DNA from: Croceivirga thetidis
Lineage (GTDB): Bacteria > Bacteroidota > Bacteroidia > Flavobacteriales > Flavobacteriaceae
Length of the DNA: 64,000 bases
Assembly (NCBI RefSeq): GCF_012272815.1
Contig: NZ_JAAWWL010000001.1
Span: 1,301,146 to 1,365,145, forward strand
Direction: 5' to 3'
Shown here: piece by piece, positions 16,460-46,464 of the stretch
Position numbering within the stretch: position 1 is the first letter of the stretch
How the letters are laid out: each line of letters starts with the position of its first letter
Notes under the pieces: model-generated
Told to the model about the DNA's origin: nothing
What the model saw: only the letters and a program-made list of their open reading frames with translations
Database searches by the model: none
Position numbers and translations under genes: made by a program

Positions 16460-16587
16460 GTTACATTCCATTATACCAGTCGTAGAGTTTTTACGTTGTT
16501 AATCTGTATTTAAATTTTGTAAGAAAAGTAAAGATTAGCTTTGCAATGCTTATTAATTCGTATCTAACCAAGCAAATACATTAAAAT

Positions 16588-18435: not shown

Positions 18436-18457
18436 CAAGGTATTTCAAGAAAACAGC

Positions 18458-18487
18458 AAAAAAGCCGCTCTTAAAGCGGCTTTTTTG
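18458..18487 (+). terminator. rho-independent terminator after glmS
   Basis: GCCGCT (18464-18469), loop, AGCGGC (18475-18480), then TTTTTT (18481-18486). Confidence 0.7.
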
Positions 18488-18639
18488 CTGTATTAGCAAT
18501 AAATACTGCCAAAATCCAATAAAATTTTACTATGCATGCATAATTAATTTGCGTTTTAAGAAATTTCACGGGAAAAAAAATGTATCTTCCCCGCCGAAAT
18601 TAACTTCCTTTTTTAGACTAAACTTAACGCAAATTCAAA

Positions 18640-32723: not shown

Positions 32724-32738
32724 AGAGCTTATTTTGAA

Positions 32739-32767
32739 AGACGGCGGATTTTTCCGCCGTTTTTTTA
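32739..32767. terminator. bidirectional terminator between flotillin (+) and gpsA (-)
   Basis: ACGGCGGA (32741-32748), TTTTT loop, CCGCCGT (32754-32760), then TTTTTT. On the minus strand it follows the gpsA stop. Confidence 0.75.
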
Positions 32768-33766
32768 ACCAGGTTCTGACTCTGAACCGCTTTCTAATTT
32801 TAAAAGCCCTCTGAATGCATCATGAACCGTATTGTCTTCATAAAGCACTTTATAAACCTCTTCTGAAATGGGCATATGAACGTTGTAGTCTTGTGCCAAT
32901 TCCATAACAACTTTAGCAGTTTTCACCCCTTCGGCAACTTCTGACATTTCTTCTATTATCTCATCCAGTTTTTTCCCTTTTCCCAATTGAAAGCCTACAT
33001 GTCGGTTTCGACTTTTGGTACTACTACAGGTCGCAACCAAATCACCCATGCCGGCAAGACCAGCGAAGGTTCTTCGCCGACCACCCATTGCCGTGCCCAA
33101 TCTTGTAAGCTCTGAAAGTCCACGTGTAATAAGAGCTGCTCGAGTATTATCTCCAGCGTTTGCACCATCACCCATTCCTGTAGCAATGGCCATAATGTTC
33201 TTTAACGCACCACCGAGTTCACATCCAATAACATCATTATTCGTGTAAACCCGAAATAGACCTGAATTGAAAACGCCTTGTAGTTTTTTGCCAATCACTT
33301 CATCAACCATGGCAATCACGGCTGCAGCCGCTTGACCATTGTGAATTTCCTTGGCTAGATTTGGACCGGTTAGAACGCCTGTTGGATGCCCAGGTAGGAT
33401 TTCTTCGATAACTTCGGTCATCCTTTTTTTGGTACCCATTTCTAATCCCTTTGAAAGGCTTACAATTGGTATCCAGGGTCTAATATGGGCTTTTGCTGTT
33501 TCCAATACTGTTCTGAAATTTTGTGATGGAATGCCCATTACCAAAACATCAGAATTTTTAACGGTTTCTTCTATTGAAGCTGAGGCTTTAAGATTTTTGT
33601 TAAGGAGTGCTCCCGGAAGGTATTTTGAATTGGTGCGATGTTCGTTGATTTCATTAACGGTATTTTCGTTTCGTGCCCAAATAGTAGTATTTGCATTCCG
33701 GGCAGTTAAGGAGGCAACTGTGGTTCCCCAAGATCCTCCTCCCAACAATCCAACATTTAATGGCAT
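32765..33766 (-). CDS. gpsA: NAD(P)H-dependent glycerol-3-phosphate dehydrogenase
   Basis: VGLLGGGSWGTT Rossmann motif, GpsA-like length. The ORF-track start at 33781 is TTG; the ATG at 33766 (MPLNVGLLGGGSWG) is the likely start. Confidence 0.85.
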   Translation of the reverse strand: MPLNVGLLGGGSWGTTVASLTARNANTTIWARNENTVNEINEHRTNSKYLPGALLNKNLKASASIEETVKNSDVLVMGIPSQNFRTVLETAKAHIRPWIPIVSLSKGLEMGTKKRMTEVIEEILPGHPTGVLTGPNLAKEIHNGQAAAAVIAMVDEVIGKKLQGVFNSGLFRVYTNNDVIGCELGGALKNIMAIATGMGDGANAGDNTRAALITRGLSELTRLGTAMGGRRRTFAGLAGMGDLVATCSSTKSRNRHVGFQLGKGKKLDEIIEEMSEVAEGVKTAKVVMELAQDYNVHMPISEEVYKVLYEDNTVHDAFRGLLKLESGSESEPG

Positions 33767-33808
33767 AGGCAATGGTTTCAAAGTGGATTGCTTGAGAAGG
33801 CAATCCTA

Positions 33809-36800
33809 TTAGTTATTCAGTTCAGCTACGAACAGGTCCCTTACCTGTTCTACGTATTTATCCAAATCTTTCAATTTCCATAGTCCAGTATCCACGGGTT
33901 CCAAAACGACAACTTCTATATGGGTAGGACGTAATAATTTGGCACCTTTCGGCATAGCCTGGTATGCATTTTTGATAACTATTGGAATGATTGGAACTCC
34001 AGCTTGTATGGCCAAATGAAATGCACCTTTTTTGAACTTGCCCAGCTCTGCTGTACCACTTCTTGTACCTTCAGGGGCAATAGCGACTGAAATCCCACTT
34101 TTTAAGGCATCCACTGCTGGTTTCATGGCCTCTATAGCCTTGGCTTTGTTACTTCTGTCTATATAGATAGCACCTAGGGCCTTAAATATTGGACCAATTG
34201 GGCTTTTCTCCAATTCCTTTTTAGCTACACCTGTAAAATCATTACGGAGCAACTTCATCACAATAAAAAAGTCTGCTGCACTTTGATGGTTAAAGCAAAA
34301 AACAGCTGGACGAAAATCGGTCAGGTAGCGTTTTCCCCGAACTGAAATCTGCAACCCAGCAAGTCTGGTACCCAAATCCCCAATGGTTGCAAAGGTAGTA
34401 TTGGCAGCTTCTTGTCTTGACATTGTAGTCAAGCCTTTAATTGCTCCCCTTACCGCTGAAGGATAGATGCTAGCGACCGCCAAGCCCGTACGAAGACCGT
34501 TCACCACAGATTTTTCTTGTGGTTCTTCAAATCTTAGAATTGGCCAATCGTTTTCAAAAGCAACTTGTGACAAGGCGTTATCTGGATTTACGGCAACGGG
34601 CTTTCCTACTATCTTGAATAAGGGATAATCATCAAAGCTGTCCGAGTAAAAATAACTTTTAGAAAGGTCAATATCGTTATCTCGAGCAAATGAACGGGCT
34701 GCTTTGGCCTTACCTTCACCCCAACACATTTCTTCGATTCGACCCGTGAACTTCCCGTTTTGCAGCTCCATTCTGGTGCAGTATATATCAGATATACCCA
34801 GCTCTTTGGCTATCGGCGCAACTTGATACGCGGTGGCAGCCGAAACGATTACCACGCGGTGCCCTTTTTCTAAATGTTTTTCAATCAGTTTTCTTGACTC
34901 AGGATAAATGGTTGCGGCTAAAAACTCGTCATAGACATCCTGCCCTACATCGTAGAATACCTTTTCTGGAATTCCCTTGACCCCTAGGGCTGCAATTTTG
35001 GTTAATACCTCAAAATCTCGATTTCCAAATGAATACACCAGCGCTGTAATAAACTGTGTGATGTATTCTTTTGGGGTGGTTTCACCGCTAAATAATCTTG
35101 TTCGTACAAATCGTTTGGCAGAAAAGTCGTTAATCAGTGTACGGTCCAAATCAAAATAAGCAGCGATATGATTTCCTTCCTCTTCTTCAAGTGTTTCTTT
35201 TTTCGAATGTATTGTAGAAGCTTGCGGAACCAATAATTTCTTACTGGATATCAAGTCCATGCTTTTTTCGCTTGGTTCTACCTCAAATTCATTGAGGTAG
35301 GTGAGTCTGGTGGTAAGGTCTTCAAGTTGAACCATCCACTCTTCAAGACCTTTTTGGTTTATATGCTGTTGTTTTAGTCCAAGACCTGCATTTTCGGCAA
35401 AACGATAAGCGTTCTGCAAGAATGGTTTTGAAACGCTATCCAATCTTGTGATTCTACTTTGCCAATGCAGTTCTTTTCCTTTGAACATGCAAAGCTCCAG
35501 GAAATCATCTTCCGAATATGGGTCTTCATTGTCCCAATTGAGTAGGGTATAGCAAACAACTTTGTAAGCATCTAAATAAGACAGGAGCAGTGCCCTTGAA
35601 ATGAACAAGTGCTGTTTTTTAAGTATTTCAGAAATATCCCTTGAGGAATCACTTAGGATATCGCGCCAATCTTTATGAAACCGAAATAGTTCCTCTTCAA
35701 TTTCTTCACTGAATTTTGCCTTATTAGTATAGAAAAATTCGAATTTAAATAGATTTCTGAGGTTCATGATTTCCTCCCAGAAATGAACAATTCTGTTGTC
35801 TGAAGTATCATCCTTGATTTTAGCCAAGGCCATCTCTACAAAAGCTGAATGATACAAATGCCCCGCGGTCATATTTGCATAATAAGTAGCAGGAAGGTAT
35901 TCTGATGAAACAATGCTGTACTGTGCTTTTTGACCGGCCCTGCTTTTTTGTAGAATATTTGCCCCTTGTAGCAGATTTAAAGCTTTTTGGACGCTTACAG
36001 CTATAGGGAAACCCCTATCCATCAAGGCGTTTTCTTGTTTTTTACCGATGTACTCCATTAACCGCTTCACCTTGAATTCGATTTCCTTTTTGGTCAAGGC
36101 AAAATCATTCAATAAAACCGTACATATTAGCGAAACAGTTGATACTGGTGTTATTCTTGACATTCTGGTGATTACATCAAATGCAAAAAAGGGCAGTGTA
36201 TTTTTATTTGCATAGCTGTCTTCACTTAATTGAGGTACGGTAACATTGTGTGTTTCATCAATTTCAACGGGGTCGCCAAACCGTATTGCAGCGCGGCCAT
36301 AATCACTGCCAAGACTTCGAACATATTTAACACCTTCAGCTAGGTTTTCAGATTTCTTTTTGGCGCCACGACCTTGTTGGGTCATTTCTTTAACATCAGG
36401 GATGAGGTCGTAAACAATGGAAACCGGCACATATTTTATGGCCCTTGAACTCTGTTTTTCGGCGTCCATTATGTATTTGAGAATACCCATTTGCGGATGC
36501 AGAATCTTACCGGTTCTAGAACGGGTACCTTCAATATTCCATGTAAGGTGATCGCCTTTATCGATGATGGTCGAAATGTAATGCCTAAGCGTTACTTTGT
36601 AAACAGGATTATCTTTAAAACTTCGCCTTATAAATACGATACCTGCACTTTTCCCTAATTGTTTCATACCAGGGAAAGCCAAATTGATTCCACCAAAAGA
36701 ATAGGGAACGGGCATACCGTATCGGGCCAATGTTGCTATCAAAACCAAGGTGTCTAAGTAGGTCTTGTGCGTCATGATGAATGCAACGGAATTCAACCGC

Positions 36801-37051
36801 ATTAACTTCATCAATTTTTTTATCCCCTTTGGGTCAACATCTATTTTTTCGCTGTAAGCACGAGATAGGATGTAATCGAAGCCTTTGACCGATACCATTT
36901 TGGCAATAGGATGTTGCTCGGCATATAGTTCTCTGATATACTCTGTGGCTTCTTTTTGGACTTCTTTGAAATCGAGCTTATGTTCTTTGGCGGTTTGCCT
37001 TAAGACTTCTTGAAATTTTTCATTCTTTATGATATTGTCCATACTGCCCAA
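33809..37051 (-). CDS. tri-domain fusion: PlsB-type glycerol-3-phosphate acyltransferase + HAD-IB phosphatase + PlsC-type lysophosphatidate acyltransferase
   Basis: N-terminal domain has PlsB blocks I-IV: AFIMTHKTYLDTLVL (HxxxxD), GIVFIRRSF, WNIEGTRSRTGKIL, KYVPVSIVYD. The middle domain has HAD motifs: YFDLDRTLI (DxDxT), VVIVSAAT, a conserved Lys region, SDSFDD. The C-terminal domain has PlsC blocks: FCFNHQSAADFFI, AIYIDRSN, IAPEGTRS, VPIIPIVI. 1080 aa. The track start at 37051 is TTG; an ATG at 37042 is the likely start. Confidence 0.85.
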   Translation of the reverse strand: MGSMDNIIKNEKFQEVLRQTAKEHKLDFKEVQKEATEYIRELYAEQHPIAKMVSVKGFDYILSRAYSEKIDVDPKGIKKLMKLMRLNSVAFIMTHKTYLDTLVLIATLARYGMPVPYSFGGINLAFPGMKQLGKSAGIVFIRRSFKDNPVYKVTLRHYISTIIDKGDHLTWNIEGTRSRTGKILHPQMGILKYIMDAEKQSSRAIKYVPVSIVYDLIPDVKEMTQQGRGAKKKSENLAEGVKYVRSLGSDYGRAAIRFGDPVEIDETHNVTVPQLSEDSYANKNTLPFFAFDVITRMSRITPVSTVSLICTVLLNDFALTKKEIEFKVKRLMEYIGKKQENALMDRGFPIAVSVQKALNLLQGANILQKSRAGQKAQYSIVSSEYLPATYYANMTAGHLYHSAFVEMALAKIKDDTSDNRIVHFWEEIMNLRNLFKFEFFYTNKAKFSEEIEEELFRFHKDWRDILSDSSRDISEILKKQHLFISRALLLSYLDAYKVVCYTLLNWDNEDPYSEDDFLELCMFKGKELHWQSRITRLDSVSKPFLQNAYRFAENAGLGLKQQHINQKGLEEWMVQLEDLTTRLTYLNEFEVEPSEKSMDLISSKKLLVPQASTIHSKKETLEEEEGNHIAAYFDLDRTLINDFSAKRFVRTRLFSGETTPKEYITQFITALVYSFGNRDFEVLTKIAALGVKGIPEKVFYDVGQDVYDEFLAATIYPESRKLIEKHLEKGHRVVIVSAATAYQVAPIAKELGISDIYCTRMELQNGKFTGRIEEMCWGEGKAKAARSFARDNDIDLSKSYFYSDSFDDYPLFKIVGKPVAVNPDNALSQVAFENDWPILRFEEPQEKSVVNGLRTGLAVASIYPSAVRGAIKGLTTMSRQEAANTTFATIGDLGTRLAGLQISVRGKRYLTDFRPAVFCFNHQSAADFFIVMKLLRNDFTGVAKKELEKSPIGPIFKALGAIYIDRSNKAKAIEAMKPAVDALKSGISVAIAPEGTRSGTAELGKFKKGAFHLAIQAGVPIIPIVIKNAYQAMPKGAKLLRPTHIEVVVLEPVDTGLWKLKDLDKYVEQVRDLFVAELNN

Positions 37052-37063
37052 AACCGTTAACTC

Positions 37064-38254
37064 CTAATTTAAGAAAAACAAACTTCTCTTTTTCTTGTTC
37101 CAGTAAAAAGGATAGAGAAAGCGTTCTATGAAAGTTGTAGTGTCTTCAACGGTCCTACCTTCAATGTTGGCTTGCAAGGCATTTGCCGTAATCAATAGCA
37201 CACTGACATTTGCGCCTAATCCTGAATGACTACCATAAACTTCAATGTTGGCAATATCTTTTCTGAAACTTTCTGCTTCCATACAATGTTTCCAAGGCAA
37301 AAGACCGTCGGTTTTTGTATAAATACAGGTTATAGGAACATTGGGTATTGGGTCCAATTCTTCTAAAAAACGCTTGTTTCGCTCTTTTAATGATTTACCC
37401 CTAAAGAATTCAAGAACACCATTCACAGGGGTCTTCATGTCCATAACTCCCCAAACAGGTGAACCAATGGTCACAATTTGCTCAACCATATCAGGATGTC
37501 GGTTGGCCATAATTTTAGCGAAAAGACCACCGCCACTCCAACCCACTATATTGACTTTTTGCCCACGGGTACGAAAAATATCTTCTAGTTTTTCTTCTAG
37601 CCTTGGTATATAATGAGATTTGATCAGGTTGACACCTTGATCCCATTTGTAGGTTTTGAAACCCAAAGAAGTCAAATAGCGACGCACAAATGAGGTTGAA
37701 TAATCATCTCCTAAATAGGGCGGAATCAAAAGAACTGGCCTGCCATCTCCTTTAATTCGTTTTGGTATAAAGGGATAAAATGCATAAATCGATGTCCATT
37801 CTACCAAAGACCTTCCTTCCAATAGCATATTGAAAAGTGGTGGCTTGGGAATCTTTAAATTGATTTGAGCAATTTGACGCTTGAAACTTTCCAGAACATT
37901 TTTGGTGAGTTCAGTTGTTTTCGGATCACTTTTTTCGACAAGATCCTCAACGACATGTTCAAGTATGTTTATCAAGGTATAGTACTCACGGCTCGGCCCA
38001 AGTTCGTCGCAGATTCGTATACATTTTTGAAATGAGGAATTAATATCACTTTCATTATCGAGAGTTAACTTCTTGATAAGAGGAAGTAAATCTTCAGAAT
38101 CTTGATGGTCTTTAAAGTGTTTTGAAAATATTCGTTTCAAGTCTCGAACCGCAAGTTTGTTCTTTTTGCCCAAATGGGTAATGAACTCGATAAAAGCTTC
38201 GTATAAATGCAAATAGTCGTTCATGGTTTGTGGGGGATATGCTTGTTTAGCCAT
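37064..38254 (-). CDS. lipase-like alpha/beta-hydrolase with N-terminal helical domain
   Basis: The C-terminal half carries a nucleophile elbow VNIVGWSGGGLF, a candidate Asp (TKTDGLLPW) and a candidate His (GSHSGLG). An alternative ATG at 38224 would give an ATGA overlap with the upstream gene stop. Confidence 0.55.
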   Translation of the reverse strand: MAKQAYPPQTMNDYLHLYEAFIEFITHLGKKNKLAVRDLKRIFSKHFKDHQDSEDLLPLIKKLTLDNESDINSSFQKCIRICDELGPSREYYTLINILEHVVEDLVEKSDPKTTELTKNVLESFKRQIAQINLKIPKPPLFNMLLEGRSLVEWTSIYAFYPFIPKRIKGDGRPVLLIPPYLGDDYSTSFVRRYLTSLGFKTYKWDQGVNLIKSHYIPRLEEKLEDIFRTRGQKVNIVGWSGGGLFAKIMANRHPDMVEQIVTIGSPVWGVMDMKTPVNGVLEFFRGKSLKERNKRFLEELDPIPNVPITCIYTKTDGLLPWKHCMEAESFRKDIANIEVYGSHSGLGANVSVLLITANALQANIEGRTVEDTTTFIERFLYPFYWNKKKRSLFFLN

Positions 38255-39162
38255 GTAATGATATCTTCTTCGACCTCTTCGCTGTTTATTTCGTTAAGCA
38301 TTTCATGTCGGCCTCCTTTGTAGAGATTGAAAGTCAGTTCATTGTTGCCATTTTCTCTATAATTTTTGGCAACTTTAGTGACCCCCTTGCCCATTTCTCC
38401 AACGGGATCCTCATCTCCTGAAAATATCAGTATAGGGAGGTCATCAGGGGTACTTATAAAGGCTTCAGGTTTATTCAATTGTCGCGAATTGGTCAATATG
38501 TCTGCAAAAACGCCAATTGAAAAATTTTCTATTCGATAAGGGTCGGCTTCAAAAATATCAACTGCAGTTTCATCACTACTTATCCAATCAAGTTTGGTTC
38601 TATTGGGTTTGAATTTTTTATTGAATTCATCAAAAAAGAATGCCCTTAAGGTTTCGTTGCTTCGTTCCCTACCTCTGAAAGCACTAACAAGTTTTGTGCT
38701 TGCCAGCCCAAAATGACCGAGTCCTTTTATAAAATTTGCGGTTCCTGATAAAATAAGAGCGTCAATATCCGAGCCGTGTTCTAGTACATATTTACGACTT
38801 AGCAAAGATCCCATGCTATGCCCAAATAGAATAAACTTCGTGTTAGGGTGTTCCTGGCACATCAATGTAGTCAAAGAATGCATATCTGCAACAGCATCCC
38901 CAAAATAATCGTCGCCATCATAATAACCGAACAATCGTTTTATTTCGGCAGTTTTTCCATGGGCGCGATGGTCGTTCGCATACACAGTAAAACCTTCTTT
39001 TTGTAAGCGATTTGCTATGGTTTCATACCTGCCCGCATGTTCACCTATACCATGTGCAATTTGAATAACACCTCTAAGAACAGTCCCTTCTGCTGCCTCC
39101 CATTTATAGTAGCAGATGACTTCCCCATCCTTGGCGGTAAATGTATTTGTTTTGTAAGGCAT
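38221..39162 (-). CDS. alpha/beta hydrolase, lysophospholipase / monoacylglycerol-lipase family
   Basis: HGIGEHAGRY and GHSMGS motifs typical of the Hydrolase_4 / lysophospholipase L2 / MGL family. 313 aa. ATG confirmed. Confidence 0.7.
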   Translation of the reverse strand: MPYKTNTFTAKDGEVICYYKWEAAEGTVLRGVIQIAHGIGEHAGRYETIANRLQKEGFTVYANDHRAHGKTAEIKRLFGYYDGDDYFGDAVADMHSLTTLMCQEHPNTKFILFGHSMGSLLSRKYVLEHGSDIDALILSGTANFIKGLGHFGLASTKLVSAFRGRERSNETLRAFFFDEFNKKFKPNRTKLDWISSDETAVDIFEADPYRIENFSIGVFADILTNSRQLNKPEAFISTPDDLPILIFSGDEDPVGEMGKGVTKVAKNYRENGNNELTFNLYKGGRHEMLNEINSEEVEEDIITWLNKHIPHKP

Positions 39163-39164
39163 CT

Positions 39165-41003
39165 TTATCTGCTTAAAAAGGCTTTGATGAGGTTACTAAA
39201 CTTTCGCTTATCGGCAACAGTTCCTGAAAGTTTAAGGCGCTGTTGAATTTTAAGCTCGTCGAAAAGAAATTTTTTCTTGTAAAGTGCGTAGAGATTTTCA
39301 TCCTCAATTTCCATGAGCATTTTTGGATCTAGTGCTGTTGTCTTTTTAATTGAAATAGGTTCTTTAGTCAAGTCAATTTCCCAACATTCGCTACTTTCTC
39401 CCATATCAACCCCAATATGATATAGGCCTTTATATTTTTTTACGAGAGCGGTTTCTTTCTTGAGGTATCTTTTTAATGCGTTGAAAAATACGGTGCTCTC
39501 ACTCTTTTTCTTAGCCTCTTTTGCAGGTGTTTTTTTCTTATCCCTTGCTAAGATTAATTTTTCCAATTCATTTGCTGACTCTCGAATGTATCTGGAGAAC
39601 AAATAGGCATCTGGCATTGTCTTCGCATCAGATGTCGGTGTAATACTTATATTGCCGTTATAGCTAAAAGCCGCGATAATCAGTCCAAAACCATTGACCA
39701 CCGGAGTCAACGGAAACATAGCTACCACTTTATGGCCGTTGAGGTACAACGTATTTTTTGGTCCAGGCACATTGGTGATGGTGACATTAAAAGGTGGCCT
39801 GTGTAGGTCTTTAATATTGTACTTGCTGTAGATACGTGCCGCTAAATTGGCCAAGCCGAATGGAACCGCATCTGCCATTTTTACCAAGGTTTTTGCACCC
39901 ATAGTTTTATGCCTTGCTTTACCAAGCATTGTCTGTTCTTGTATATATTCCAGACGTTCCAATGGTTCTTCAATATGCGTGGCCAGCTGAATCATCATAT
40001 TGGCTATTTGGTTGTTATGCGAAGTATCGTTTTCGGCGCGTATTGAAATCGGAACATTAGCGACCAATGGCTGCATTGGTAATTTTTCTTTTTCAAGTAG
40101 ATATCTGCGCAAAGCTCCGGCACAAATGGCAAGCACAACATCATTAATACTACCACCAGCCAGTTTTCGTAGACCATTCACCCTATCAAAAGACAGAATT
40201 GCGGTGCCCCAAGTTCTTTTTGGCGAAATATTTCCATTAAAAATGGTATTTGGCACAGGATATCTTGCCGTTGCAAATTCCTTTTGGATACTTAGCGTTT
40301 TAGAAGCTCTTGTTTTGACAAGCGCAATTGCGGTGTTGGCAACGGATTTGGGTAGTTTTAGGGGGTTTTTAAAAAAACCGTAGCTACTTTTTAGTAGCAA
40401 ACTCAAGTCGTCAGGCAGCGGATCTGGTTGAAATTTTTTGATTTTTGATTTGTCGATGGGCTTTACTTTATCATCTTTCTCAAACAAAGTTCCTAAAAGA
40501 CCTACGCCTGAACTTCCATCAATCATTACATGATGAACTTTACTTACAATGGCAACAGAGCCTTTGGGCACTTGTGGGATTTCGTCAATACCCTCAATAA
40601 AATGAATTGACCAAAGGGGTCTTCTCAAATCGAGGGGAGCACTGAAAATTCGTGAGGTTGTTCTACGCAAAGACTCCCAATTTGAGGGATCTGCCAACTT
40701 CATGCGGTTGAGATGAAGATCTAATTCAAAATTTGGATCATCAACCCAATATGGATAATCCAAATCCATGGGAACACGCATTAAACGCTGTCTAAATTTT
40801 GGCATTAAATGTAGCTTCGAAGCAACAATTTTTTTGAAGTCCTTGAAATTAAGTGAACCTTCAACAACCAATAGCGTGGCAATATGCATCGGACTTGTGG
40901 GAGACTCGGCATAAAGAAAGGTTGCATCGGTACCTGAGACTTGTTCGTATTTGCCTTCCAACACCTCTTGTGCAATATCTTTAAAATCAATTTTTGATGC
41001 CAT
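39165..41003 (-). CDS. wax ester synthase / acyl-CoA:diacylglycerol acyltransferase (WS/DGAT) fused to C-terminal SCP2-like lipid-binding domain
   Basis: HHVMIDGSSG (HHxxxDG catalytic motif), the ATFLYAES...PMHIATLL N-terminal block, PKFRQRL, PYWVDD, LDLRRPLWSIHFIEG. The last roughly 130 aa (GLYHIGVDMGESSECWEIDLTKEP...KLSG) match an SCP2 sterol-carrier fold pattern. 612 aa versus about 460 aa for a typical WS/DGAT. Confidence 0.85.
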   Translation of the reverse strand: MASKIDFKDIAQEVLEGKYEQVSGTDATFLYAESPTSPMHIATLLVVEGSLNFKDFKKIVASKLHLMPKFRQRLMRVPMDLDYPYWVDDPNFELDLHLNRMKLADPSNWESLRRTTSRIFSAPLDLRRPLWSIHFIEGIDEIPQVPKGSVAIVSKVHHVMIDGSSGVGLLGTLFEKDDKVKPIDKSKIKKFQPDPLPDDLSLLLKSSYGFFKNPLKLPKSVANTAIALVKTRASKTLSIQKEFATARYPVPNTIFNGNISPKRTWGTAILSFDRVNGLRKLAGGSINDVVLAICAGALRRYLLEKEKLPMQPLVANVPISIRAENDTSHNNQIANMMIQLATHIEEPLERLEYIQEQTMLGKARHKTMGAKTLVKMADAVPFGLANLAARIYSKYNIKDLHRPPFNVTITNVPGPKNTLYLNGHKVVAMFPLTPVVNGFGLIIAAFSYNGNISITPTSDAKTMPDAYLFSRYIRESANELEKLILARDKKKTPAKEAKKKSESTVFFNALKRYLKKETALVKKYKGLYHIGVDMGESSECWEIDLTKEPISIKKTTALDPKMLMEIEDENLYALYKKKFLFDELKIQQRLKLSGTVADKRKFSNLIKAFLSR

Positions 41004-41015
41004 TGGTCAGTTGTT

Positions 41016-42353
41016 TTATGCTACTCGCGAACGGTTCTTTTTTTGTAAGCTAGTATAATTATTGATGCCTATATTTTCTGCTTTGAGTTCAAACATTAAA
41101 CTAAATAGGCCAAAAAATGTTCTATTTAGATAAATAATGTGTCTTGAACCCCTATTGGCGTTCATTTTTCTAACATTTGAAGACTTCATGTAATGCTCAC
41201 CTAAAGCTGAAATTCTTTCGAATAATGATTGGTCTGAAAAGTCGAAAGTTTCGCTTTGAAAAGGTTGTGTAAAACATTCAAGTACCTCGTAGAACATTTT
41301 GGTAAAAAACTCAAGTTCTTCTTCAGAATCTTCAGTCTTCAACACTTCAAGGGCCAAAAGATTTTTTCGAAAACTCTTTTCGTTATTTATAACATCTGCT
41401 TTAAAAAGTTCGAAATACGGCGTATAAAATTCATTTGGAATTTCTTTCATACAACCAAAATCAAGTGCAATCACCTCGTTTTTATCCGAAACAAGAAAAT
41501 TTCCAGGGTGAGGATCTGCATGAACTTTGCGCAATTCATGCAATTGGTACATGTAAAAATCCCAAAGTGTTTGGCCAACTTTGTTCGAAGCCTTTTGGTC
41601 AGTATTTGATTTAATAAATTCAGAAAGATGCTTACCATTCATCCAATCCATTGTAATAATGTCAGAAGAAGAGTATTCAGGGTAGTACTTAGGAAATCTC
41701 AAATTTGGAATATGTTGACATGAACTTGCGACCTCTTGGCTTTGTTTTAGCTCCAAGACATAATCCGTTTCTTCTACAAGCTTGTTTTCAACTTCCTTGA
41801 AATATTTCTCTGAATGTTCTCCCTTGATGTTGAACATTTTCATAGCAACAGGTTTCACAATTGCTAAATCGGATTGAATACTTTCGGCTACACCAGGGTA
41901 TTGGATTTTTACGGCAAGGGTCTTACCATTTTTTTCAGCTTGATGTACCTGTCCAATACTTGCAGCATTAATTGCTTCATTACCAAATTTGTCGAATAAT
42001 TGGTTTGGATACTTACCGAATGATTTTCTGAAGGTTTTGAGAACCAAAGGAGCAGAAAGCGGAGGAACTGAAAATTGGGAAAGGGAAAATTTCTCTACAA
42101 AAGCCTTGGGCATAATGTTCTTTTCCATGCTCATCATTTGTGCCATTTTCAGGGCACTTCCCTTCAATGTTTTTAAACTATCATAGATATCGTTCGCGTT
42201 GTTTTCATCAAGACGTTCCTTAGCCTTCTCTTCAGAATTGACCATCTTGTCGCCATAATATTTCAAATAATTTACACCAACTTTAGCACCCGTTTTTACT
42301 AGTTTGGAAGTGCGTTGCAGCTTTGAAATCGGTATTTTTTTCGATGTCTTCAT
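41016..42353 (-). CDS. ABC1/UbiB (AarF) atypical protein kinase family protein
   Basis: AASIGQVHQAEKNGKTLAVKIQYPGV and ADPHPGNF are ABC1-kinase signatures. 445 aa. ATGA overlap with the upstream TetR-like gene. Confidence 0.8.
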   Translation of the reverse strand: MKTSKKIPISKLQRTSKLVKTGAKVGVNYLKYYGDKMVNSEEKAKERLDENNANDIYDSLKTLKGSALKMAQMMSMEKNIMPKAFVEKFSLSQFSVPPLSAPLVLKTFRKSFGKYPNQLFDKFGNEAINAASIGQVHQAEKNGKTLAVKIQYPGVAESIQSDLAIVKPVAMKMFNIKGEHSEKYFKEVENKLVEETDYVLELKQSQEVASSCQHIPNLRFPKYYPEYSSSDIITMDWMNGKHLSEFIKSNTDQKASNKVGQTLWDFYMYQLHELRKVHADPHPGNFLVSDKNEVIALDFGCMKEIPNEFYTPYFELFKADVINNEKSFRKNLLALEVLKTEDSEEELEFFTKMFYEVLECFTQPFQSETFDFSDQSLFERISALGEHYMKSSNVRKMNANRGSRHIIYLNRTFFGLFSLMFELKAENIGINNYTSLQKKNRSRVA

Positions 42354-43012
42354 TCGTTTTCTTTCGACTTTATTTTTTCGGCATACAAAAATTTACCGAG
42401 GTCAATGATATTATGTAATGATTTGGTATTCAATAGCTCTAAAGCAGTATTTACTGACTTTTCAATGAAAATATCTGTTTTTTCGCACCGTTGTGAATCG
42501 TCCGACATCCAGAATTTGATGGTCAATAAGAACTGGACCCAAAAGCCTTCTTTAATTGACTTTTTTTGAAATGATTCCAGACTACTGGTAAGATTGAGCG
42601 GTTCCATCGCCAATGAATCGACGAATCCATCAAAACTTTGCTTTAATTCGCTGAATAGCGATATTGTACCTAAGCTTAAACCATAATCTTTTAAGGTGAT
42701 TAAGATGAATTCTCGATTTAAGGTCAGGTTTTCAAAAAAAGTATAATACAGGCTGAGCAGTTTGTCCTTTTTGTCAAAGGAAGGATATTCAGAACTTTCA
42801 GCAAGGGTAGCAATCGAAACATCAAAAAGCGTTCTGAAAATCGCCTTGTCCAATTCTTCAAAATCCTTATAATGTTCATGAAAAGAATTGGCATCAAAAT
42901 CATAGTGTTCACCCAAATTTTCTATTGAATCGGGTTTGCCCTGCAGTCTTACCACTGCATCCATATAAAAATCTATAAGATCTTCTTCTGTTATTTTCTG
43001 TTGATTTGCCAA
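42350..43012 (-). CDS. TetR/AcrR-like transcriptional regulator (divergent HTH)
   Basis: TEEDLIDFYMDAVVRLQGKPDSIENLGEHYDFDANSFHEHYKDFEEL aligns position-by-position with the TetR consensus HTH (TRERILEAALELFAERGY..TSMRDIAEAAGVSKGALYHHFPSKEAL). TTG start at 43012. Confidence 0.5.
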   Translation of the reverse strand: MANQQKITEEDLIDFYMDAVVRLQGKPDSIENLGEHYDFDANSFHEHYKDFEELDKAIFRTLFDVSIATLAESSEYPSFDKKDKLLSLYYTFFENLTLNREFILITLKDYGLSLGTISLFSELKQSFDGFVDSLAMEPLNLTSSLESFQKKSIKEGFWVQFLLTIKFWMSDDSQRCEKTDIFIEKSVNTALELLNTKSLHNIIDLGKFLYAEKIKSKENE

Positions 43013-43108
43013 CCTAAGATGTGAACGTTTTCATAGCTTTTTCGGGAATGCCAAATGGAAATTGAGGTAAATCCGAAGCATAGCTAAATTAAGGAATTAT
43101 GCATGCAT

Positions 43109-43145
43109 AAAAAAACCAGTTAGTCTCATTGAGATTAACTGGTTT
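43109..43145 (-). terminator. rho-independent terminator of the phasin-like operon (minus strand)
   Basis: AACCAGTTAGTCTCA / TGAGATTAACTGGTT near-perfect inverted repeat (43116-43145). On the minus strand it is followed by TTTTTTT (plus-strand A-run 43109-43115). It sits just downstream of the 43177 stop. Confidence 0.7.
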
Positions 43146-43176
43146 CAGTAACTAAACTTAAATAACTAACGAAATA

Positions 43177-43464
43177 CTAAGCTACCAGTTTTTTGAATCT
43201 CTTCTGACCCTCTTTGAAATCACCTTTGATTTCGTTTAAGATATCAAAAACCAATTCTTGTTGTTTGGCCGCCAATTTCAATCCTCCTTTTACAGCTTTG
43301 TCAGCAACACCTTGCCACTGTTCTGTAATTTCAATTGATGTGGATACAAACTCTTCGGTTTTTGTTAGGGCAACTTGGTTTGCGTTAAGTGCCATATCCT
43401 TGGTCTTCTTTGCATAGTTTGCAAAAATTCCCTTCTTATTTTTATTTACTTTCTTATTTCCCAT
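43177..43464 (-). CDS. phasin-like small amphipathic protein (paralog 1)
   Basis: 95 aa, predicted all-helical and Lys-rich, with the KQQELVFDILNEIK motif shared with the two neighbouring paralogs. Confidence 0.5.
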   Translation of the reverse strand: MGNKKVNKNKKGIFANYAKKTKDMALNANQVALTKTEEFVSTSIEITEQWQGVADKAVKGGLKLAAKQQELVFDILNEIKGDFKEGQKRFKKLVA

Positions 43465-43502
43465 TACGGTTTGAATTAAGATTAGTCCCTATTTGAACTG
43501 AA

Positions 43503-44381
43503 TTATTTTTTGTTGTCAGCCAACCAAGCCGCTATAGCTTCAACTCCTGCCTCAGCTCCTAGTTCTGCTTGTTTTTTCAAGTCAGTAACGCTGGTATTTT
43601 TAAAAGTTGAACCCGCTTCATCAAGAATCGACTTGATTTTAGTTTCAGTTGCCTGTGCCAATTGCGCAAAAGTTTCGATACCATTCTCCTTGAAAATACG
43701 CTCAAGTTTAGGACCAACACCCTTAATAGCTTTAAGGTCATCTTTAATAACGGCCTTAACAGTGCTCTCAACCTTCGCCGCTTTTTGCTTTACCTCGGCT
43801 ACTTTCACAGAAGCTTTTTTAGAGGTTTTTGTAGCTTTAGCAGTAACTGTTTTCTTTGTTTTCCCAACATTTTTCTTTGTTTGCTTCAAGGCATCATCAA
43901 CCAAGTCTTCACCCTTGTCAATTACCTTTTTAGCCTGCTTAAGAGCGTCTTCCTTGACCTCATTAAATTTGGCTACGCCCTGATTTTTTAGGTTTTCAGC
44001 AGTTTTCTCAACCTTTTGAACGATTGGGTTTTCTATAACTTTCTCTTTAATGGTTTCAGAAACTTCCAATACCTTTTTACCTACAGGTGTTTTAGATACA
44101 TATTCAAAGGCACGCTCAATGGTGTCCTCATCATAACCAACCAAATCCATGGTCTTTTCTTTTCCTGTGTTGAACTGATTTTTTACTGTTGCTGCAGTTT
44201 CAAAAACCAAATCCATTTGTCTTTTACGTAATGGCTCGGTTTTTTTAACCATTTTCTTGGTCAATTCTTGCCATTTCTCACCATGCTCTATGGTCGTGTT
44301 AATTGTTGCCATTGTCACATTTATCAATGACTTATTCAAGCTTTCGCTTTTTTTAGTTCTGTTTTTTGTTGCTGTTGCCAT
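43503..44381 (-). CDS. phasin-like protein with Lys/Ala-rich linker and C-terminal helix-hairpin-helix domain (paralog 2)
   Basis: N-terminus shares KRQMDLVFETAATVK with the paralogs. The middle has KTKKTVTAKATKTSKKASVKVAEVKQKAAK (histone-H1-like). The C-terminus has DDLKAIKGVGPKLERIFKENGIETFAQLAQAT (HhH). Confidence 0.5.
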   Translation of the reverse strand: MATATKNRTKKSESLNKSLINVTMATINTTIEHGEKWQELTKKMVKKTEPLRKRQMDLVFETAATVKNQFNTGKEKTMDLVGYDEDTIERAFEYVSKTPVGKKVLEVSETIKEKVIENPIVQKVEKTAENLKNQGVAKFNEVKEDALKQAKKVIDKGEDLVDDALKQTKKNVGKTKKTVTAKATKTSKKASVKVAEVKQKAAKVESTVKAVIKDDLKAIKGVGPKLERIFKENGIETFAQLAQATETKIKSILDEAGSTFKNTSVTDLKKQAELGAEAGVEAIAAWLADNKK

Positions 44382-44425
44382 GATATATTTTGTTTAAATA
44401 CTGTTGTTCTTAATTAATTATGATG

Positions 44426-44461
44426 CAAATCTAATTTTGAGTAGTTACAAATGAGTTGCAA
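44426..44461 (-). promoter_or_regulatory. candidate SARP-box promoter: TTGCAAC-N4-TTGTAAC direct repeat (minus strand 44461-44443) plus TAGATTTG -7 box (44433-44426)
   Basis: Reverse complement of 44443-44461 is TTGCAACTCATTTGTAACT. Fourteen nt after its second TTG lies TAGATTTG, which matches the Bacteroidota TAnnTTTG -7 element. This is 45 nt upstream of the ATG at 44381. Confidence 0.5.
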
Positions 44462-44467
44462 TCGAAA

Positions 44468-44719
44468 CTAGTTCTTGACAATTCTCTTTTTGATACCGTA
44501 GAGGGCATCAAAAACAAGTTCTTGTTGGGCAGCAGTGATGTCCAATCCTTTTTTCACAACTTTTGAGGTCAAATCCAAAGATTTATAACCTAAGCCAATA
44601 GAAACATCGAATGCTTTTTCTGTTGTGGAAAGTGCAAAGTCGTTTGCTTTGTTTGCCAATCCAAGAGCGTTATCCGCTACTTTTTCTACAATGTTCTTTT
44701 TCGTTTTTTTAGTTGCCAT
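44468..44719 (-). CDS. phasin-like small amphipathic protein (paralog 3)
   Basis: 83 aa, with AAQQELVFDALYGIKK near the C-terminus matching paralog 1. ATG confirmed. Confidence 0.5.
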   Translation of the reverse strand: MATKKTKKNIVEKVADNALGLANKANDFALSTTEKAFDVSIGLGYKSLDLTSKVVKKGLDITAAQQELVFDALYGIKKRIVKN

Positions 44720-44756
44720 AACTATATATTTTTCTAATGTTTTCTATTTTATGGTG

Positions 44757-44792
44757 CAAACATAGAATCCCATAGTTACAAATGAGTTACAA
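44757..44792 (-). promoter_or_regulatory. candidate SARP-box promoter: TTGTAAC-N4-TTGTAAC direct repeat (minus strand 44792-44774) plus TATGTTTG -7 box (44764-44757)
   Basis: Reverse complement of 44774-44792 is TTGTAACTCATTTGTAACT. The repeat-to-TAnnTTTG spacing is identical to the 44426-44461 element. It is 38 nt upstream of the ATG at 44719. Confidence 0.5.
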
Positions 44793-44866
44793 GTCTGGTT
44801 GACTATTGATTTTGAATGAAGAAAGCTGCGAAGGAAATATCGATGTTTGGAATGGGAAGATGGGAA

Positions 44867-45673
44867 TCAAGCAATAGACTCAATCTTCTTGAGCAAATCC
44901 CGAGTTGCTGGTAGTGGTGTAATACCATACTCTTCTTCTAAAATATCAGCACATTTTTGATAAGTTTTTAATGCTTGCGGCCTATTTCCTTTTTGGATAT
45001 AAGCAGACATTTGAATTCGATAAGCATCTTCCCATGTTTTATCAATGGCAATTGCTTGTTGAGCAAGCCGTACACTTTCCATTGGGTTGGTGGCTATTAA
45101 TAACTCTGCCAAATTCACCAAGGCACCCAATATCAAAACCTGAATTTTCTCTCGCTCTTCTGACGACCAATCTTCAAAAATGCGATTTGGAAGATAAGAC
45201 CCTTGATGCAATGCAATGGCCATGTTGTAGGCTTCTGCTGCAATCTCAGGAAAATCACCCAAGGCTTGATTTCCAATGATGATGTATTTCTCAATGGCAT
45301 CAACATCGATCCAAACTAAATTTGAATTTAATTGATAAGTTACCCCCTGCCGTTCTACATAAATCGCTTCGGTTCTAGATGGTCGGTTTGGTTCCAAAAC
45401 TTTGTTGACCCCATGCAGCGCTACTTTAAAATCACGATCGTCACCATCTTCCCATAAGTGGTCCATGATGTGCTCCTTGTGTAACGCATGTTTGTTTCGA
45501 TAAGAAATAAGGTATTGAATTAATTGAAGGGTCTTGTCCCGACCCCATTCTTTTGCATTGACCTTTTCTCCATCACGCCAAAGCACAAATTGACCTAGCG
45601 TTTGGAATTTAATTGGAGCTTCATTCTGAAACTTTTTATGTTGCTCCAATTGATTTGTCAATGCTGCCTTCAA
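44867..45673 (-). CDS. SARP-family (OmpR-type winged helix + BTAD) transcriptional activator
   Basis: IKFQTLGQFVLWRDGEKV...DKTLQLIQYLISYRNKHALHKEHIMDHLWEDGDD is an OmpR/SARP-type DNA-binding domain. The C-terminus (VRLAQQAIAIDKTWEDAYRIQMSAYIQKGNRPQALKTYQKCADILEEEYGITPLPATRDLLKKI) is a classic BTAD. No in-frame ATG precedes the DNA-binding domain, so the start is TTG at 45673, 45661 or 45649. Confidence 0.7.
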   Translation of the reverse strand: MKAALTNQLEQHKKFQNEAPIKFQTLGQFVLWRDGEKVNAKEWGRDKTLQLIQYLISYRNKHALHKEHIMDHLWEDGDDRDFKVALHGVNKVLEPNRPSRTEAIYVERQGVTYQLNSNLVWIDVDAIEKYIIIGNQALGDFPEIAAEAYNMAIALHQGSYLPNRIFEDWSSEEREKIQVLILGALVNLAELLIATNPMESVRLAQQAIAIDKTWEDAYRIQMSAYIQKGNRPQALKTYQKCADILEEEYGITPLPATRDLLKKIESIA

Positions 45674-45685
45674 AATTTGAAATTT

Positions 45686-46237
45686 CTATTTGGTCGTAGA
45701 TGTTTTAGCCTTGGTAGTTCTTGAAGGCTTTTTGGTATTTGCTTGGTTCATAGCATCAACCTTTTTAGTGAGTTCCGCAACCGATTTTGTGAGTTTTGAA
45801 AGACTATCTTGCATTATCTTGAAATCTGATTTAGAAGCGTTACGCCATTGGTCGATAGGTACTTTTTCCATAAGTTCCTCACCATATTCGCTTAATTGCT
45901 CCTGCAAATTGGCAACCTGTTTTCTTGGGTCTTTTAAAGTCTCTTTGAGCATTTTTGGCCCTGTGGCTGCAACTGATTTAAAAAGCGAGAAACTCTTGGT
46001 CAAAATGTTTTCCTGTTCTTCAGAAGTACGGTCGGTCGTAGCTTCCATTGTTAAATCGGCCAAATGTTGTTGTATAAAATCTACGGCCTGTTTAAAATCA
46101 GAGAAGTTTAAATCTTCACCCCCTTGAACGTGTGAAACGTTACCACGCCATTGCACTTCAGATTCACCATTTTCGTCATAGATTTTTTGGGTGAACCGAA
46201 CCATAAATGAGGCGGTCTGTGCTGCTTTTTTTGCCAT
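45686..46237 (-). CDS. hypothetical helical protein (first gene of the minus-strand block)
   Basis: 183 aa, no recognisable domain, predicted helical with a Lys/Thr-rich tail. ATG confirmed. Lies 12 bp upstream of the SARP gene. Confidence 0.4.
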   Translation of the reverse strand: MAKKAAQTASFMVRFTQKIYDENGESEVQWRGNVSHVQGGEDLNFSDFKQAVDFIQQHLADLTMEATTDRTSEEQENILTKSFSLFKSVAATGPKMLKETLKDPRKQVANLQEQLSEYGEELMEKVPIDQWRNASKSDFKIMQDSLSKLTKSVAELTKKVDAMNQANTKKPSRTTKAKTSTTK

Positions 46238-46464
46238 TTTTTTCTGTTTTATATCGGGTTGGCTAACTATCTAAAAGTAACCATAATTCTTTTCGGTGAC
46301 ATTTTCTGATACTTAATCGGGGTTACCATCCTTTCTTTGACCAGTAGTTCAAGCAATAAAAATGGGGTATTGAAATACCGATTGAAGTACGAAATCCAAG
46401 CTGTTTTTGCATTTCATCGGAATTTGTACCTTGTTCGTCGATAGATACAGCAAAATTTTTAGAT

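Follow-up and report, generated by a model that had tools for sequence, protein, structure and literature searches.

The DNA analyzed here, referred to as the window, is a 64,000-nt stretch of the genome of the flavobacterium Croceivirga thetidis (NCBI RefSeq assembly GCF_012272815.1, contig NZ_JAAWWL010000001.1, positions 1,301,146 to 1,365,145 of the forward strand), and our subject is a candidate neutral-lipid locus within it. At window positions 32765-46237 the list of open reading frames (ORFs) and their translations give a continuous run of 12 minus-strand ORFs, here named g01 to g12, whose predicted products range from regulatory and small helical proteins to the enzymes of acylglycerol synthesis and hydrolysis. 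In the direction of transcription, the genes and the cis-elements among them are as follows:

45686-46237, minus strand: g01, an orphan 183-aa protein matching no Pfam or NCBIfam family
44867-45673, minus strand: g02, a SARP-like activator with a BTAD domain (PF03704) and a divergent N-terminal winged-helix region
44757-44792, minus strand: putative promoter of g03, in which 10 nt separate the heptamer pair TTGTAACTCATTTGTAAC (44775-44792) from the -7 box TATGTTTG (44757-44764)
44468-44719, minus strand: g03, an 83-aa basic amphipathic-helix protein, proposed coat paralog 1 (hhalign, hydrophobic moment)
44426-44461, minus strand: putative promoter of g04-g05, in which 10 nt separate the heptamer pair TTGCAACTCATTTGTAAC (44444-44461) from the -7 box TAGATTTG (44426-44433)
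43503-44381, minus strand: g04, a 292-aa helical protein with a K/A/T-rich linker and a C-terminal HhH domain (HHH_5)
43177-43464, minus strand: g05, a 95-aa basic amphipathic-helix protein, proposed coat paralog 2 (hhalign, hydrophobic moment)
43110-43144, minus strand: intrinsic-terminator-like hairpin and T-run after g05, read from the window sequence
43098-43109: perfect 12-bp palindrome TATGCATGCATA, just upstream of TAATTTAG, a -7-like box for g06
42350-43012, minus strand: g06, a TetR-fold protein (TetR_C_23) without a detectable helix-turn-helix (HTH), in 4-nt overlap with g07
41016-42353, minus strand: g07, an ABC1/UbiB-family atypical kinase/ATPase (COQ8 family; PF03109)
39165-41003, minus strand: g08, a predicted wax ester synthase/diacylglycerol acyltransferase (WS/DGAT; PF03007, PF06974) fused to a C-terminal SCP2 domain (PF02036)
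38221-39162, minus strand: g09, a monoacylglycerol lipase (MGL)/lysophospholipase-like alpha/beta hydrolase (PF12146, Hydrolase_4)
37064-38254, minus strand: g10, a lipase/esterase-like alpha/beta hydrolase (sub-threshold Pfam matches; PDB profile matches)
33809-37051, minus strand: g11, a 1080-aa triple fusion of glycerol-3-phosphate acyltransferase (GPAT), HAD, and lysophosphatidate acyltransferase (LPAAT) modules (Pfam, NCBIfam)
32765-33781, minus strand: g12, gpsA (PF01210, PF07479)
32701-32715, minus strand: terminator-like hairpin and T-run downstream of gpsA, at the end of the block

The initial annotation of this region had described thirteen co-directional genes separated by gaps of 2-38 bp or by 4-nt overlaps. 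A single strand is indeed used throughout, but the count is 12, the number that its own enumeration also names, and while most junctions are as tight as described, three gaps measure 86-164 bp, the full series in transcription order being 12, 147, 86, 38, 164, -4, 12, 2, -34, 12, and 27 nt. A thirteenth gene was considered and rejected: the 86-164 bp gaps contain the promoter elements and the terminator, and no conserved ORF fits. If translation of g10, a 396-aa ORF, in fact begins at its conserved Met11 (38224), as is probable, the -34-nt overlap of g09 and g10 shrinks to 4 nt (ATGA). Profile scans with Pfam and NCBIfam models, judged by the family cut-offs quoted below for each model, recover every domain that had been named, and a motif search finds the catalytic motifs of g07, g08, g09, g10, and g11 intact. 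The products of g01, g08, and g11 match C. thetidis proteins with 100% identity. An Rfam scan of window positions 32000-47000 returned no RNA family.

The same arrangement recurs well beyond Croceivirga. A scan of one genome per species yielded 33 loci in at least 14 genera of the Flavobacteriaceae, including Muricauda/Flagellimonas, Pricia, Croceivirga, Aggregatimonas, Dokdonia, Patiriisocius, and Lacinutrix, as well as Psychroserpens, Bizionia, Polaribacter, Winogradskyella, Aquaticitalea, Oceanihabitans, and Flaviramulus. A tblastn comparison with the 12 window proteins recovers all 12 genes, their order and orientation unchanged, from each locus with a long enough contig, at identities that range from 36% (g04) to 92% (gpsA), whereas the bioB and flotillin genes that flank the block in the window are matched in none of the related loci. 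Because the 12 genes are colinear while their flanks are not conserved, the block is a discrete conserved unit, and the scattering of its genes in related genomes, which the initial annotation had named as grounds for refuting its reading, is not seen. The flotillin/SPFH (Band 7) gene itself, at 31278-32723 on the plus strand, converges on gpsA and, given its lack of tblastn matches in the related loci, probably lies outside the unit; just beyond it is a beta-ketoacyl synthase-like gene (29465-30619, plus strand).

A reduced variant of the block, at ~45-55% identity, occupies positions 14924-20242 of the metagenomic loci L034 and L035 (JGI metagenomes 3300027509 and 3300009073; GC 38%). It encodes a g01-like protein (48% identical to g01 in L034), a BTAD protein, g04-like and g05-like proteins, a g10-like hydrolase (36% identical to g10), and a WS/DGAT-SCP2, with the triple fusion nearby on the opposite strand and a mechanosensitive-channel gene in between, and it has no ABC1, TetR-fold, MGL, or gpsA gene; this content defines a core of the system. 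Such variation also bears on whether the genes could stand together merely by shared descent in a slowly rearranging region, with no single functional system behind them. All 33 loci do come from one family, the Flavobacteriaceae, but the flanking bioB and flotillin genes are not conserved while all 12 genes are, the ~50%-identity variant L034 re-assembles the same core in another arrangement, a high-GC lineage described below independently pairs the triple fusion with a WS/DGAT, and the transcription units of the block are linked by shared cis-elements. We therefore regard common descent alone as a highly improbable explanation for the clustering.

Domains, motif, and structure matches agree in predicting that g08 is a WS/DGAT acyltransferase. 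The protein matches PF03007 (E 1.3e-49) and PF06974 (E 3.4e-27), aligns end to end with solved WS/DGATs over residues ~23-486 (AtfA, 7NXG, E 1.7e-47; the Marinobacter enzyme, 6CHJ, E 1.2e-41), and carries the HHxxxDG motif as HHVMIDG at residue 157. This motif is present in 31 of 33 ORFs, the two misses coinciding with the loci L032 and L033, which hold partial copies. The SCP2 domain (PF02036, 25.0 bits against a cut-off of 21.3) covers residues 507-607, and many orthologues also carry PF02036. Downstream, g09 is predicted to be an MGL/lysophospholipase-like hydrolase by its PF12146 match (E 1.6e-47) and a GxSxG motif, GHSMG at residue 114, that is kept in 30/30 orthologues. For g10 all Pfam matches are sub-threshold; its sequence has a ~130-aa N-terminal helical extension and GWSGG at residue 238, and its profile, compared with PDB sequences, retrieves carboxylesterases, BioH, and family I.2 triacylglycerol lipases at E 2e-5 to 1e-3. 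A polyhydroxyalkanoate (PHA) granule system was also considered and rejected: none of the block's proteins has a PHA synthase domain, and the matches of g10 to PhaC/PhaZ models are at E 0.01-0.03.

Three catalytic modules follow one another in g11. The GPAT module (PF01553 and GPAT_C PF19277, the latter at E 1.3e-56) has the HX4D motif HKTYLD at residue 95 and EGTR at 174, and its closest NCBIfam model is the mycobacterial PlsB2-type PRK03355 (E 1.8e-136), where it scores 457 bits against an equivalog cut-off of 721, a shortfall due to its lack of the first ~190 aa of the mycobacterial protein. The HAD-IB module (PF12710) carries the DxDxT motif as DLDRT at residue 634 and scores 157.8 bits against a cut-off of 98 with TIGR01490, and the LPAAT module, with HQSAAD (HX4D) at 922 and EGTR at 994, scores 118.5 bits against 103 with TIGR00530. 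The modules match solved PlsC and GPAT structures, PDB matches including Thermotoga maritima PlsC (5KYM, E 9e-25), 9VUQ, and 3FVV, and the motifs are kept in all 28 complete orthologues. The NCBI start of the gene is Met4, which gives a protein of 1077 aa. The "full Kennedy pathway" that the initial annotation saw here would hold only if the HAD module, a putative phosphatase, acts on phosphatidate or lysophosphatidate; for actinobacterial HAD-PlsC proteins, the role of the HAD as phosphatidate phosphatase is described as unresolved (PMC10351704).

The triple fusion is rare outside this lineage: in a set of 1.84 billion representative proteins, full-length GPAT-HAD-LPAAT proteins form about five other clusters, at 36-49% identity, and almost all other relatives of g11 are separate PlsB2-like (600-800 aa) or HAD-LPAAT (~470-510 aa) proteins. 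Plant GPAT4/6 join acyltransferase and phosphatase activity. The nearest relative is the L034/L035 fusion, at 49% identity. At L037 (10001-14775; ENA ERZ21818094, GC 57.5%), a 1014-aa triple fusion with 40% identity to g11 stands tail to tail with a 577-aa WS/DGAT that has no SCP2 domain, so that this unrelated high-GC bacterium shows an independent pairing of triple fusion and WS/DGAT. Further triple fusions, at 36-40% identity, were seen at L036 (10001-13126), L038 (2910-5996; GCA_015665585.1), and L039 (1321-4578), on contigs with a GC content of 29-31% where the neighbors include genes for an acyl-CoA-binding protein, fasciclin, F-box, an Rpb1 fragment, and a poxvirus-type poly(A) polymerase regulatory subunit; these contigs look like giant-virus or eukaryote-associated DNA, and a scan of viral contigs with the giant-virus-like triple fusion P0245 gave no match. 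The last gene, gpsA (PF01210, E 1.2e-48; PF07479, E 6.5e-58; PF20618), is the final gene wherever the locus is complete, with identities of 80-92%.

Upstream of the enzymes lie three helical proteins, g03, g04, and g05, which had been described as phasin-like paralogs. Their paralogy is confirmed by profile-profile comparison: g03 and g05 align with an hhalign probability of 99.4% (E 1.5e-21), and the first ~75 aa of g04 are related to both at a probability of 94-95%, g01 being unrelated to any of the three. The phasin label, on the other hand, is an analogy, since the Phasin and Apolipoprotein matches of the family stay below threshold, and g03 and g05 have no phasin-family match in the Pfam scan. 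The term probably denotes a way of working rather than family membership, as suggested by the descriptive phasin traits that g03-g05 display, being small and amphipathic-helical, encoded within a lipid-gene block, and in the case of g04 equipped with a DNA-binding-type tail. Their net charges are +6, +16, and +8, respectively, and their helical hydrophobic moments lie at z 2.5-5.9 above shuffled sequences, the mean moment of g03 being at z = 2.5, as compared with 1.2-2.6 for the enzymes of the block.

The layout of g04 comprises an N-terminal, conserved helical part of ~165 aa, a hypervariable, K/A/T-rich stretch resembling histone H1, and the C-terminal HhH domain (HHH_5, E 2.4e-7 in Pfam). 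The HhH domain aligns in 18/29 orthologues (alignment A1) and HHH_5 is matched in 20/29, while orthologues without HhH carry a much longer K/A/T stretch instead. The K-rich and HhH part also matches the NCBIfam PhasinPhaH model (NF045508) at E 5e-8, with 33 bits against a cut-off of 250. In Caulobacter, the N-terminus of PhaH binds polyhydroxybutyrate (PHB) granules and its HhH domain binds DNA non-specifically, and PhaM and PhaF tether granules to the nucleoid through histone-like tails (PMC13052382). With either an HhH domain or a longer histone-like tail, the g04 family thus alternates between two known tethering modules, and by analogy we propose that g04 may act as a droplet-to-nucleoid tether. 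In the Polaribacter metagenome-assembled genome (MAG) L024 (3775-7400), the g03-g04-g05 trio occurs as a tandem duplication in which all four heptamer-pair promoters are present, encoding products of 90, 283, and 96 aa followed by products of 89 and 289 aa and a g05 homologue, both g04 copies having long K/A/T-rich tails and no HhH; duplication of the trio with its promoters is the behavior expected of a dosage-sensitive structural module.

The orphan g01 is present in all complete loci and has 306 homologues, the named ones all from Flavobacteriaceae or unclassified Bacteroidota MAGs. Its near-invariant N-terminal ~60 aa, predicted to form a beta-hairpin, are followed by amphipathic helices and a variable, K/T/A-rich basic tail (alignment A2), and the protein varies in length between genera from 179 to 231 aa, as g04 does from 271 to 361 aa, both of them with hypervariable K/T/A-rich tails. 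Such a tail may be a sign that g01, too, attaches to the nucleoid or to some other polyanion.

The spacing of the genes is itself conserved. Across the loci the junctions g01-g02, g04-g05, g06-g07, g08-g09, g09-g10, and g10-g11 are always tight: g01 invariably lies 3-12 nt upstream of the SARP gene g02, g05 begins 14-52 nt after g04, and g09 begins 1-3 nt after g08 in nearly all loci. Always wide are the gaps g02-g03 (108-444 nt, except in the Polaribacter locus with its inserted duplicate), g03-g04 (84-244 nt), and g05-g06 (124-459 nt), and in one clade the g07-g08 gap is wide as well (~150-200 nt). The likely transcription units are apparently g01-g02, g03 alone, g04-g05, and g06-g12, four or five units and not one operon, the last appearing to be split into g06-g07 and g08-g12 in one clade. 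An equivalent of the hairpin and T-run after g05 is visible in most loci, and this terminator-like structure would end the coat-protein unit.

Both g03 and g04 are preceded by the element TGYAACTCAnyTGTAAC, made of two heptamers (TGYAACT) at an 11-bp period and followed, after exactly 10 nt, by the Bacteroidota -7 box TAnnTTTG. Within the 64 kb of the window it has just two exact matches, at 44757-44792 and 44426-44461. Among the loci, the heptamer element is found upstream of the g03 homologue in 31/31 and of the g04 homologue in 30/30, with the -7 box exactly 10 nt after the heptamers in all but three cases, and the sequence around the element is not conserved between loci. SARP binding sites classically consist of direct heptamer repeats that have a period of 11 bp and abut the core promoter, and because of this shared layout g02 is the obvious candidate activator of the coat promoters. 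Its BTAD domain is well supported (PF03704, E 1.1e-15, 58.7 bits against a cut-off of 22.1), it aligns weakly but over the full length with AfsR (E 0.021), and its identity across the loci is 55-86%. In L034, four TGTAACT-like heptamers at the same 11-bp period lie upstream of the g04-like gene, and the reduced block thus indicates that the SARP and its box co-evolve. A scan for sigma-70 promoters gave the same counts as shuffled sequences, as expected for Bacteroidota, and is uninformative here.

The first two genes of the downstream unit, g06 and g07, overlap or abut across the loci. The initial annotation had taken g06 for a TetR-like regulator, a role that its sequence speaks against: TetR_C_23 is matched in 24/24 orthologues (E 1.7e-35 for g06), and none of the 24 matches the TetR_N HTH (PF00440) at E <= 1. 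Over the N-terminal 75 aa the net charge lies between -2 and -13 in each of the 24, an acidity ill-suited to DNA binding. The g06 profile finds TetR regulators, including Bacillus FadR, among PDB sequences at E 0.07-0.2. Its neighbor g07 has an ABC1 domain (PF03109, E 8e-57) with the motif HADPHPGN at residue 278, kept in 31/32 ORFs, and is not a UbiB orthologue, scoring 154 bits against a cut-off of 487 with TIGR01982 and 121 against 667 with PRK04750. COQ9 has a TetR fold, COQ8 is an ABC1/UbiB member of the coenzyme Q pathway, and the ABC1 kinases of plastoglobules work on particles of neutral lipid. In its auxiliary role, COQ9 binds lipid (bioRxiv 10.1101/2021.11.15.468694). On sequence grounds g06 is more likely to be a COQ9-like lipid-binding partner of g07 than a DNA-binding regulator, and from weak similarity and gene coupling we infer a pair in which a lipid-presenting protein would serve an atypical kinase/ATPase. 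Flavobacteriaceae use menaquinone, not ubiquinone, and since the two genes are moreover set in a glycerolipid block, the lipid that they handle is probably not a ubiquinone precursor.

A second cis-element, the palindrome TATGCATGCATA at 43098-43109, is placed between the g05 terminator and the -7-like box of g06, and it recurs in the same g05-g06 gap in the closest (clade-A) loci. In clade-B loci it precedes the WS/DGAT gene by ~120-150 nt, and several of these loci have it upstream of g01 as well; altogether it occurs in the loci L001, L002, L004, and L013-L031, placed immediately before -7-like boxes of the Bacteroidota type. The window holds another copy at 18531-18542, upstream of a TonB-dependent receptor gene (18640-21390). 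The palindrome is a candidate operator, perhaps of a wider nutrient regulon. A role as the operator of g06 is conceivable, but g06 has no detectable HTH and the second copy lies at the unrelated promoter of the TonB receptor.

In light of these results we consider it probable that the block, as a self-contained locus, serves to make, package, position, and remobilize intracellular neutral-lipid inclusions, composed of triacylglycerol (TAG) and possibly also of wax esters. In the mechanism that we propose, GpsA would supply glycerol-3-phosphate (G3P), g11 would acylate it at sn-1 through its PlsB2-like and at sn-2 through its PlsC-like module, and the HAD-IB module would remove the phosphate, so that one polypeptide could convert G3P to diacylglycerol (DAG). 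The WS/DGAT domain of g08 would then add the last acyl chain, with the fused SCP2 holding the hydrophobic substrate or product, and the MGL-like g09 and lipase-like g10 would mobilize the stored lipid. The putative COQ9/COQ8-like pair g06 and g07 would handle lipid at the membrane or droplet surface; g03 and g05 would coat the droplet, and g04 would tie it to the nucleoid via its lysine-rich tail and/or HhH, as PhaH, PhaM, and PhaF do for PHB granules. Finally, g02, probably co-transcribed with g01, would activate both coat-protein promoters via the paired TGYAACT heptamers beside the -7 box.

Several observations weigh against this interpretation. On the regulatory side, the Trans_reg_C match of g02 is weak (E 0.043, 14.3 bits against a cut-off of 26.2), and the SARP family profile, when compared with PDB sequences, gave TPR-like noise and recovered no solved SARP. 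For the proposed tether, Pfam Phasin (PF05597) is matched below threshold in 11/29 g04 orthologues (best E 0.007, 16.8 bits against 28.8) and Apolipoprotein, also below threshold, in 12/29 (best E 2.9e-5), and AlphaFold2 models of g04 (single sequence; mean predicted local distance difference test score, pLDDT, 50.1) and of g01 (34-sequence alignment; pLDDT 55.7) are too low in confidence for a fold search. The COQ9 model gives weak, sub-threshold matches in 14/24 g06 orthologues (best E 0.0036). Among the enzymes, the HAD module of g11 is also histidinol-phosphatase-like by NCBIfam, and gpsA may simply be a housekeeping copy. As to the product, it could be either TAG or wax ester. The searchable literature, which is incomplete, holds no report of neutral lipid, inclusion bodies, or transcripts for Croceivirga or the carrier genera.

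The choice of product is the basis for one alternative, in which the locus makes mainly wax ester or another WS-made acyl ester and the glycerolipid genes merely provide a phospholipid monolayer. WS/DGATs are bifunctional, the closest solved relatives of g08 are the wax-ester producers AtfA and the Marinobacter enzyme, and marine bacteria often store wax esters (PMC10351704). Yet the block holds a whole G3P-to-DAG route and gpsA with no fatty acyl-CoA reductase domain among its 12 proteins, no search aimed at such a reductase having been made, and an MGL-like hydrolase suits acylglycerol turnover, which together make a mainly wax-ester product an outside prospect in our estimation.

A somewhat stronger alternative, though still an unlikely one, is that the block serves membrane glycerolipid homeostasis or detoxification and not dedicated storage organelles: g11 and GpsA would feed phosphatidate and diacylglycerol to membranes, the WS/DGAT would only transiently buffer an excess of acyl-CoA or of free fatty acids acquired from algal lipids, and the small basic proteins would do something else, such as associating with the nucleoid or membrane. 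It draws on the facts that gpsA, GPAT, and LPAAT are also phospholipid-synthesis activities, that ABC1/COQ9-like pairs are known from membrane-lipid contexts, and that inclusion bodies are not reported for the carrier genera in the searchable literature, and the second palindrome copy upstream of the TonB-dependent receptor gene hints at a wider nutrient regulon. Against it, the coat paralogs are served by activator-type promoters of their own and have been duplicated as one module, the architecture of g04 mirrors that of granule-tethering phasins, and two hydrolases are tightly coupled to the WS/DGAT gene, with gaps of 1-3 nt. Furthermore, flavobacteria normally make phospholipids with separate PlsX, PlsY, and PlsC. 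WS/DGATs are found in only ~3% of Bacteroidota genomes (PMC10351704), which argues that the block is accessory and not housekeeping.

Beyond the neutral-lipid locus that we favor, a bolder version of it is conceivable, although we would not put it at even odds: a compact, portable "lipid-droplet organelle" island that combines a G3P-to-DAG polypeptide, a WS/DGAT-SCP2, a new coat and tether family controlled by a SARP of actinobacterial style at a Bacteroidota promoter, and a COQ8/COQ9-like mover of lipid between membrane and droplet. If this were true, the island would be the first neutral-lipid storage system to be genetically defined in Bacteroidota, and g06-g07 the first UbiB/COQ9-type pair in bacteria to act on storage lipid. 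In the ocean, Flavobacteriaceae rank among the major consumers of algal organic matter, and if many of them bank carbon as TAG or wax ester, models of feast-and-famine physiology and of marine carbon flow would change. The locus also offers a handle on whether the LPAAT-fused HAD is the missing phosphatidate phosphatase of bacterial TAG synthesis, on the roles of non-ubiquinone ABC1/UbiB proteins, and on how bacterial lipid droplets are coated and positioned. The candidate G3P-to-DAG polypeptide and the WS/DGAT-SCP2 fusion would be attractive parts for lipid engineering, and the heptamer-pair promoter provides a defined, putatively activator-dependent promoter for Bacteroidota.

With respect to known systems, the initial annotation had held that no organized locus of this kind was characterized in Bacteroidota and that its combination of fusions and coat-like proteins was undescribed. 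This was overstated insofar as the WS/DGAT-SCP2 protein and a neighboring gene were published in 2023 and the core cluster is known in mycobacteria and rhodococci. In the searchable literature, which is incomplete, we found no paper that describes the block in full, nor one on its coat paralogs, its SARP element, or its pairing of ABC1 and TetR-fold genes. The 2023 genome-mining study (PMC10351704, PLoS One) lists a ~613-aa WS/DGAT-SCP2 in Polaribacter, Muricauda, Ulvibacter, Dokdonia, Winogradskyella, and Lacinutrix with an AGPAT/hydrolase neighbor. That family is the one described here (613 aa, PF03007 and PF02036) and the genera are the same, but the study describes neither the block of 12 genes nor its operon substructure, does not cover the GPAT module of the fusion, the paralogous coat proteins, the SARP with its promoter element, or the pair of ABC1 and TetR-fold proteins, and reports no experiments on these flavobacteria.

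The individual components compare with their counterparts in a similar manner. Like PhaH of Caulobacter, PhaM of Cupriavidus, and PhaF of Pseudomonas, g04 has an amphipathic N-terminal domain and an HhH and/or lysine-rich tail, and the size, charge, and amphipathicity of g03 and g05 are similar to those of small phasins; the likely cargo here is neutral lipid, however, whereas that of phasins is PHA, and membership in the Phasin family is not significant. The lipid-droplet proteins TadA and MLDS of Rhodococcus may offer a further likeness. With the SARPs of Actinobacteria (ActII-ORF4, DnrI, AfsR), g02 shares the BTAD domain and candidate sites made of heptamer repeats, but its host belongs to the Bacteroidota, its presumed promoters have a TAnnTTTG -7 box and no sigma-70 -10 box, its proposed targets are structural coat genes where those of the actinobacterial proteins are antibiotic genes, and its winged HTH is weakly detected. 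The likeness to eukaryotic COQ8 and COQ9 is that the ABC1 gene is adjacent and translationally coupled to a gene for an HTH-less TetR-fold protein with weak COQ9 similarity, although this similarity is below threshold and the genes are found within a glycerolipid block.

The closest parallels to the block as a whole are actinobacterial. In Mycobacterium tuberculosis, the genes Rv2482c (PlsB2), Rv2483c (HAD-PlsC), Rv2484c (Tgs), and Rv2485c (LipQ) form a proposed Kennedy-pathway TAG cluster (PMC10699116), and an atf9-plsB-plsC(HAD)-like operon is known from Rhodococcus jostii RHA1, as cited in PMC10351704. A PlsB2-type GPAT, a HAD-fused LPAAT, a WS/DGAT, and an esterase are adjacent in both the actinobacterial and the flavobacterial arrangement, but in the latter GPAT, HAD, and LPAAT form one 1080-aa polypeptide, the WS/DGAT carries an SCP2 domain, the host is a member of the Bacteroidota, and gpsA, an MGL-like hydrolase, the ABC1 and TetR-fold genes, three coat paralogs, a SARP, and an orphan are added. 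By its predicted gene content, then, the block is an actinobacterial-type Kennedy/WS-DGAT cluster that has been elaborated in Bacteroidota with fusions, a putative coat and tether family, and a candidate activator-dependent promoter.

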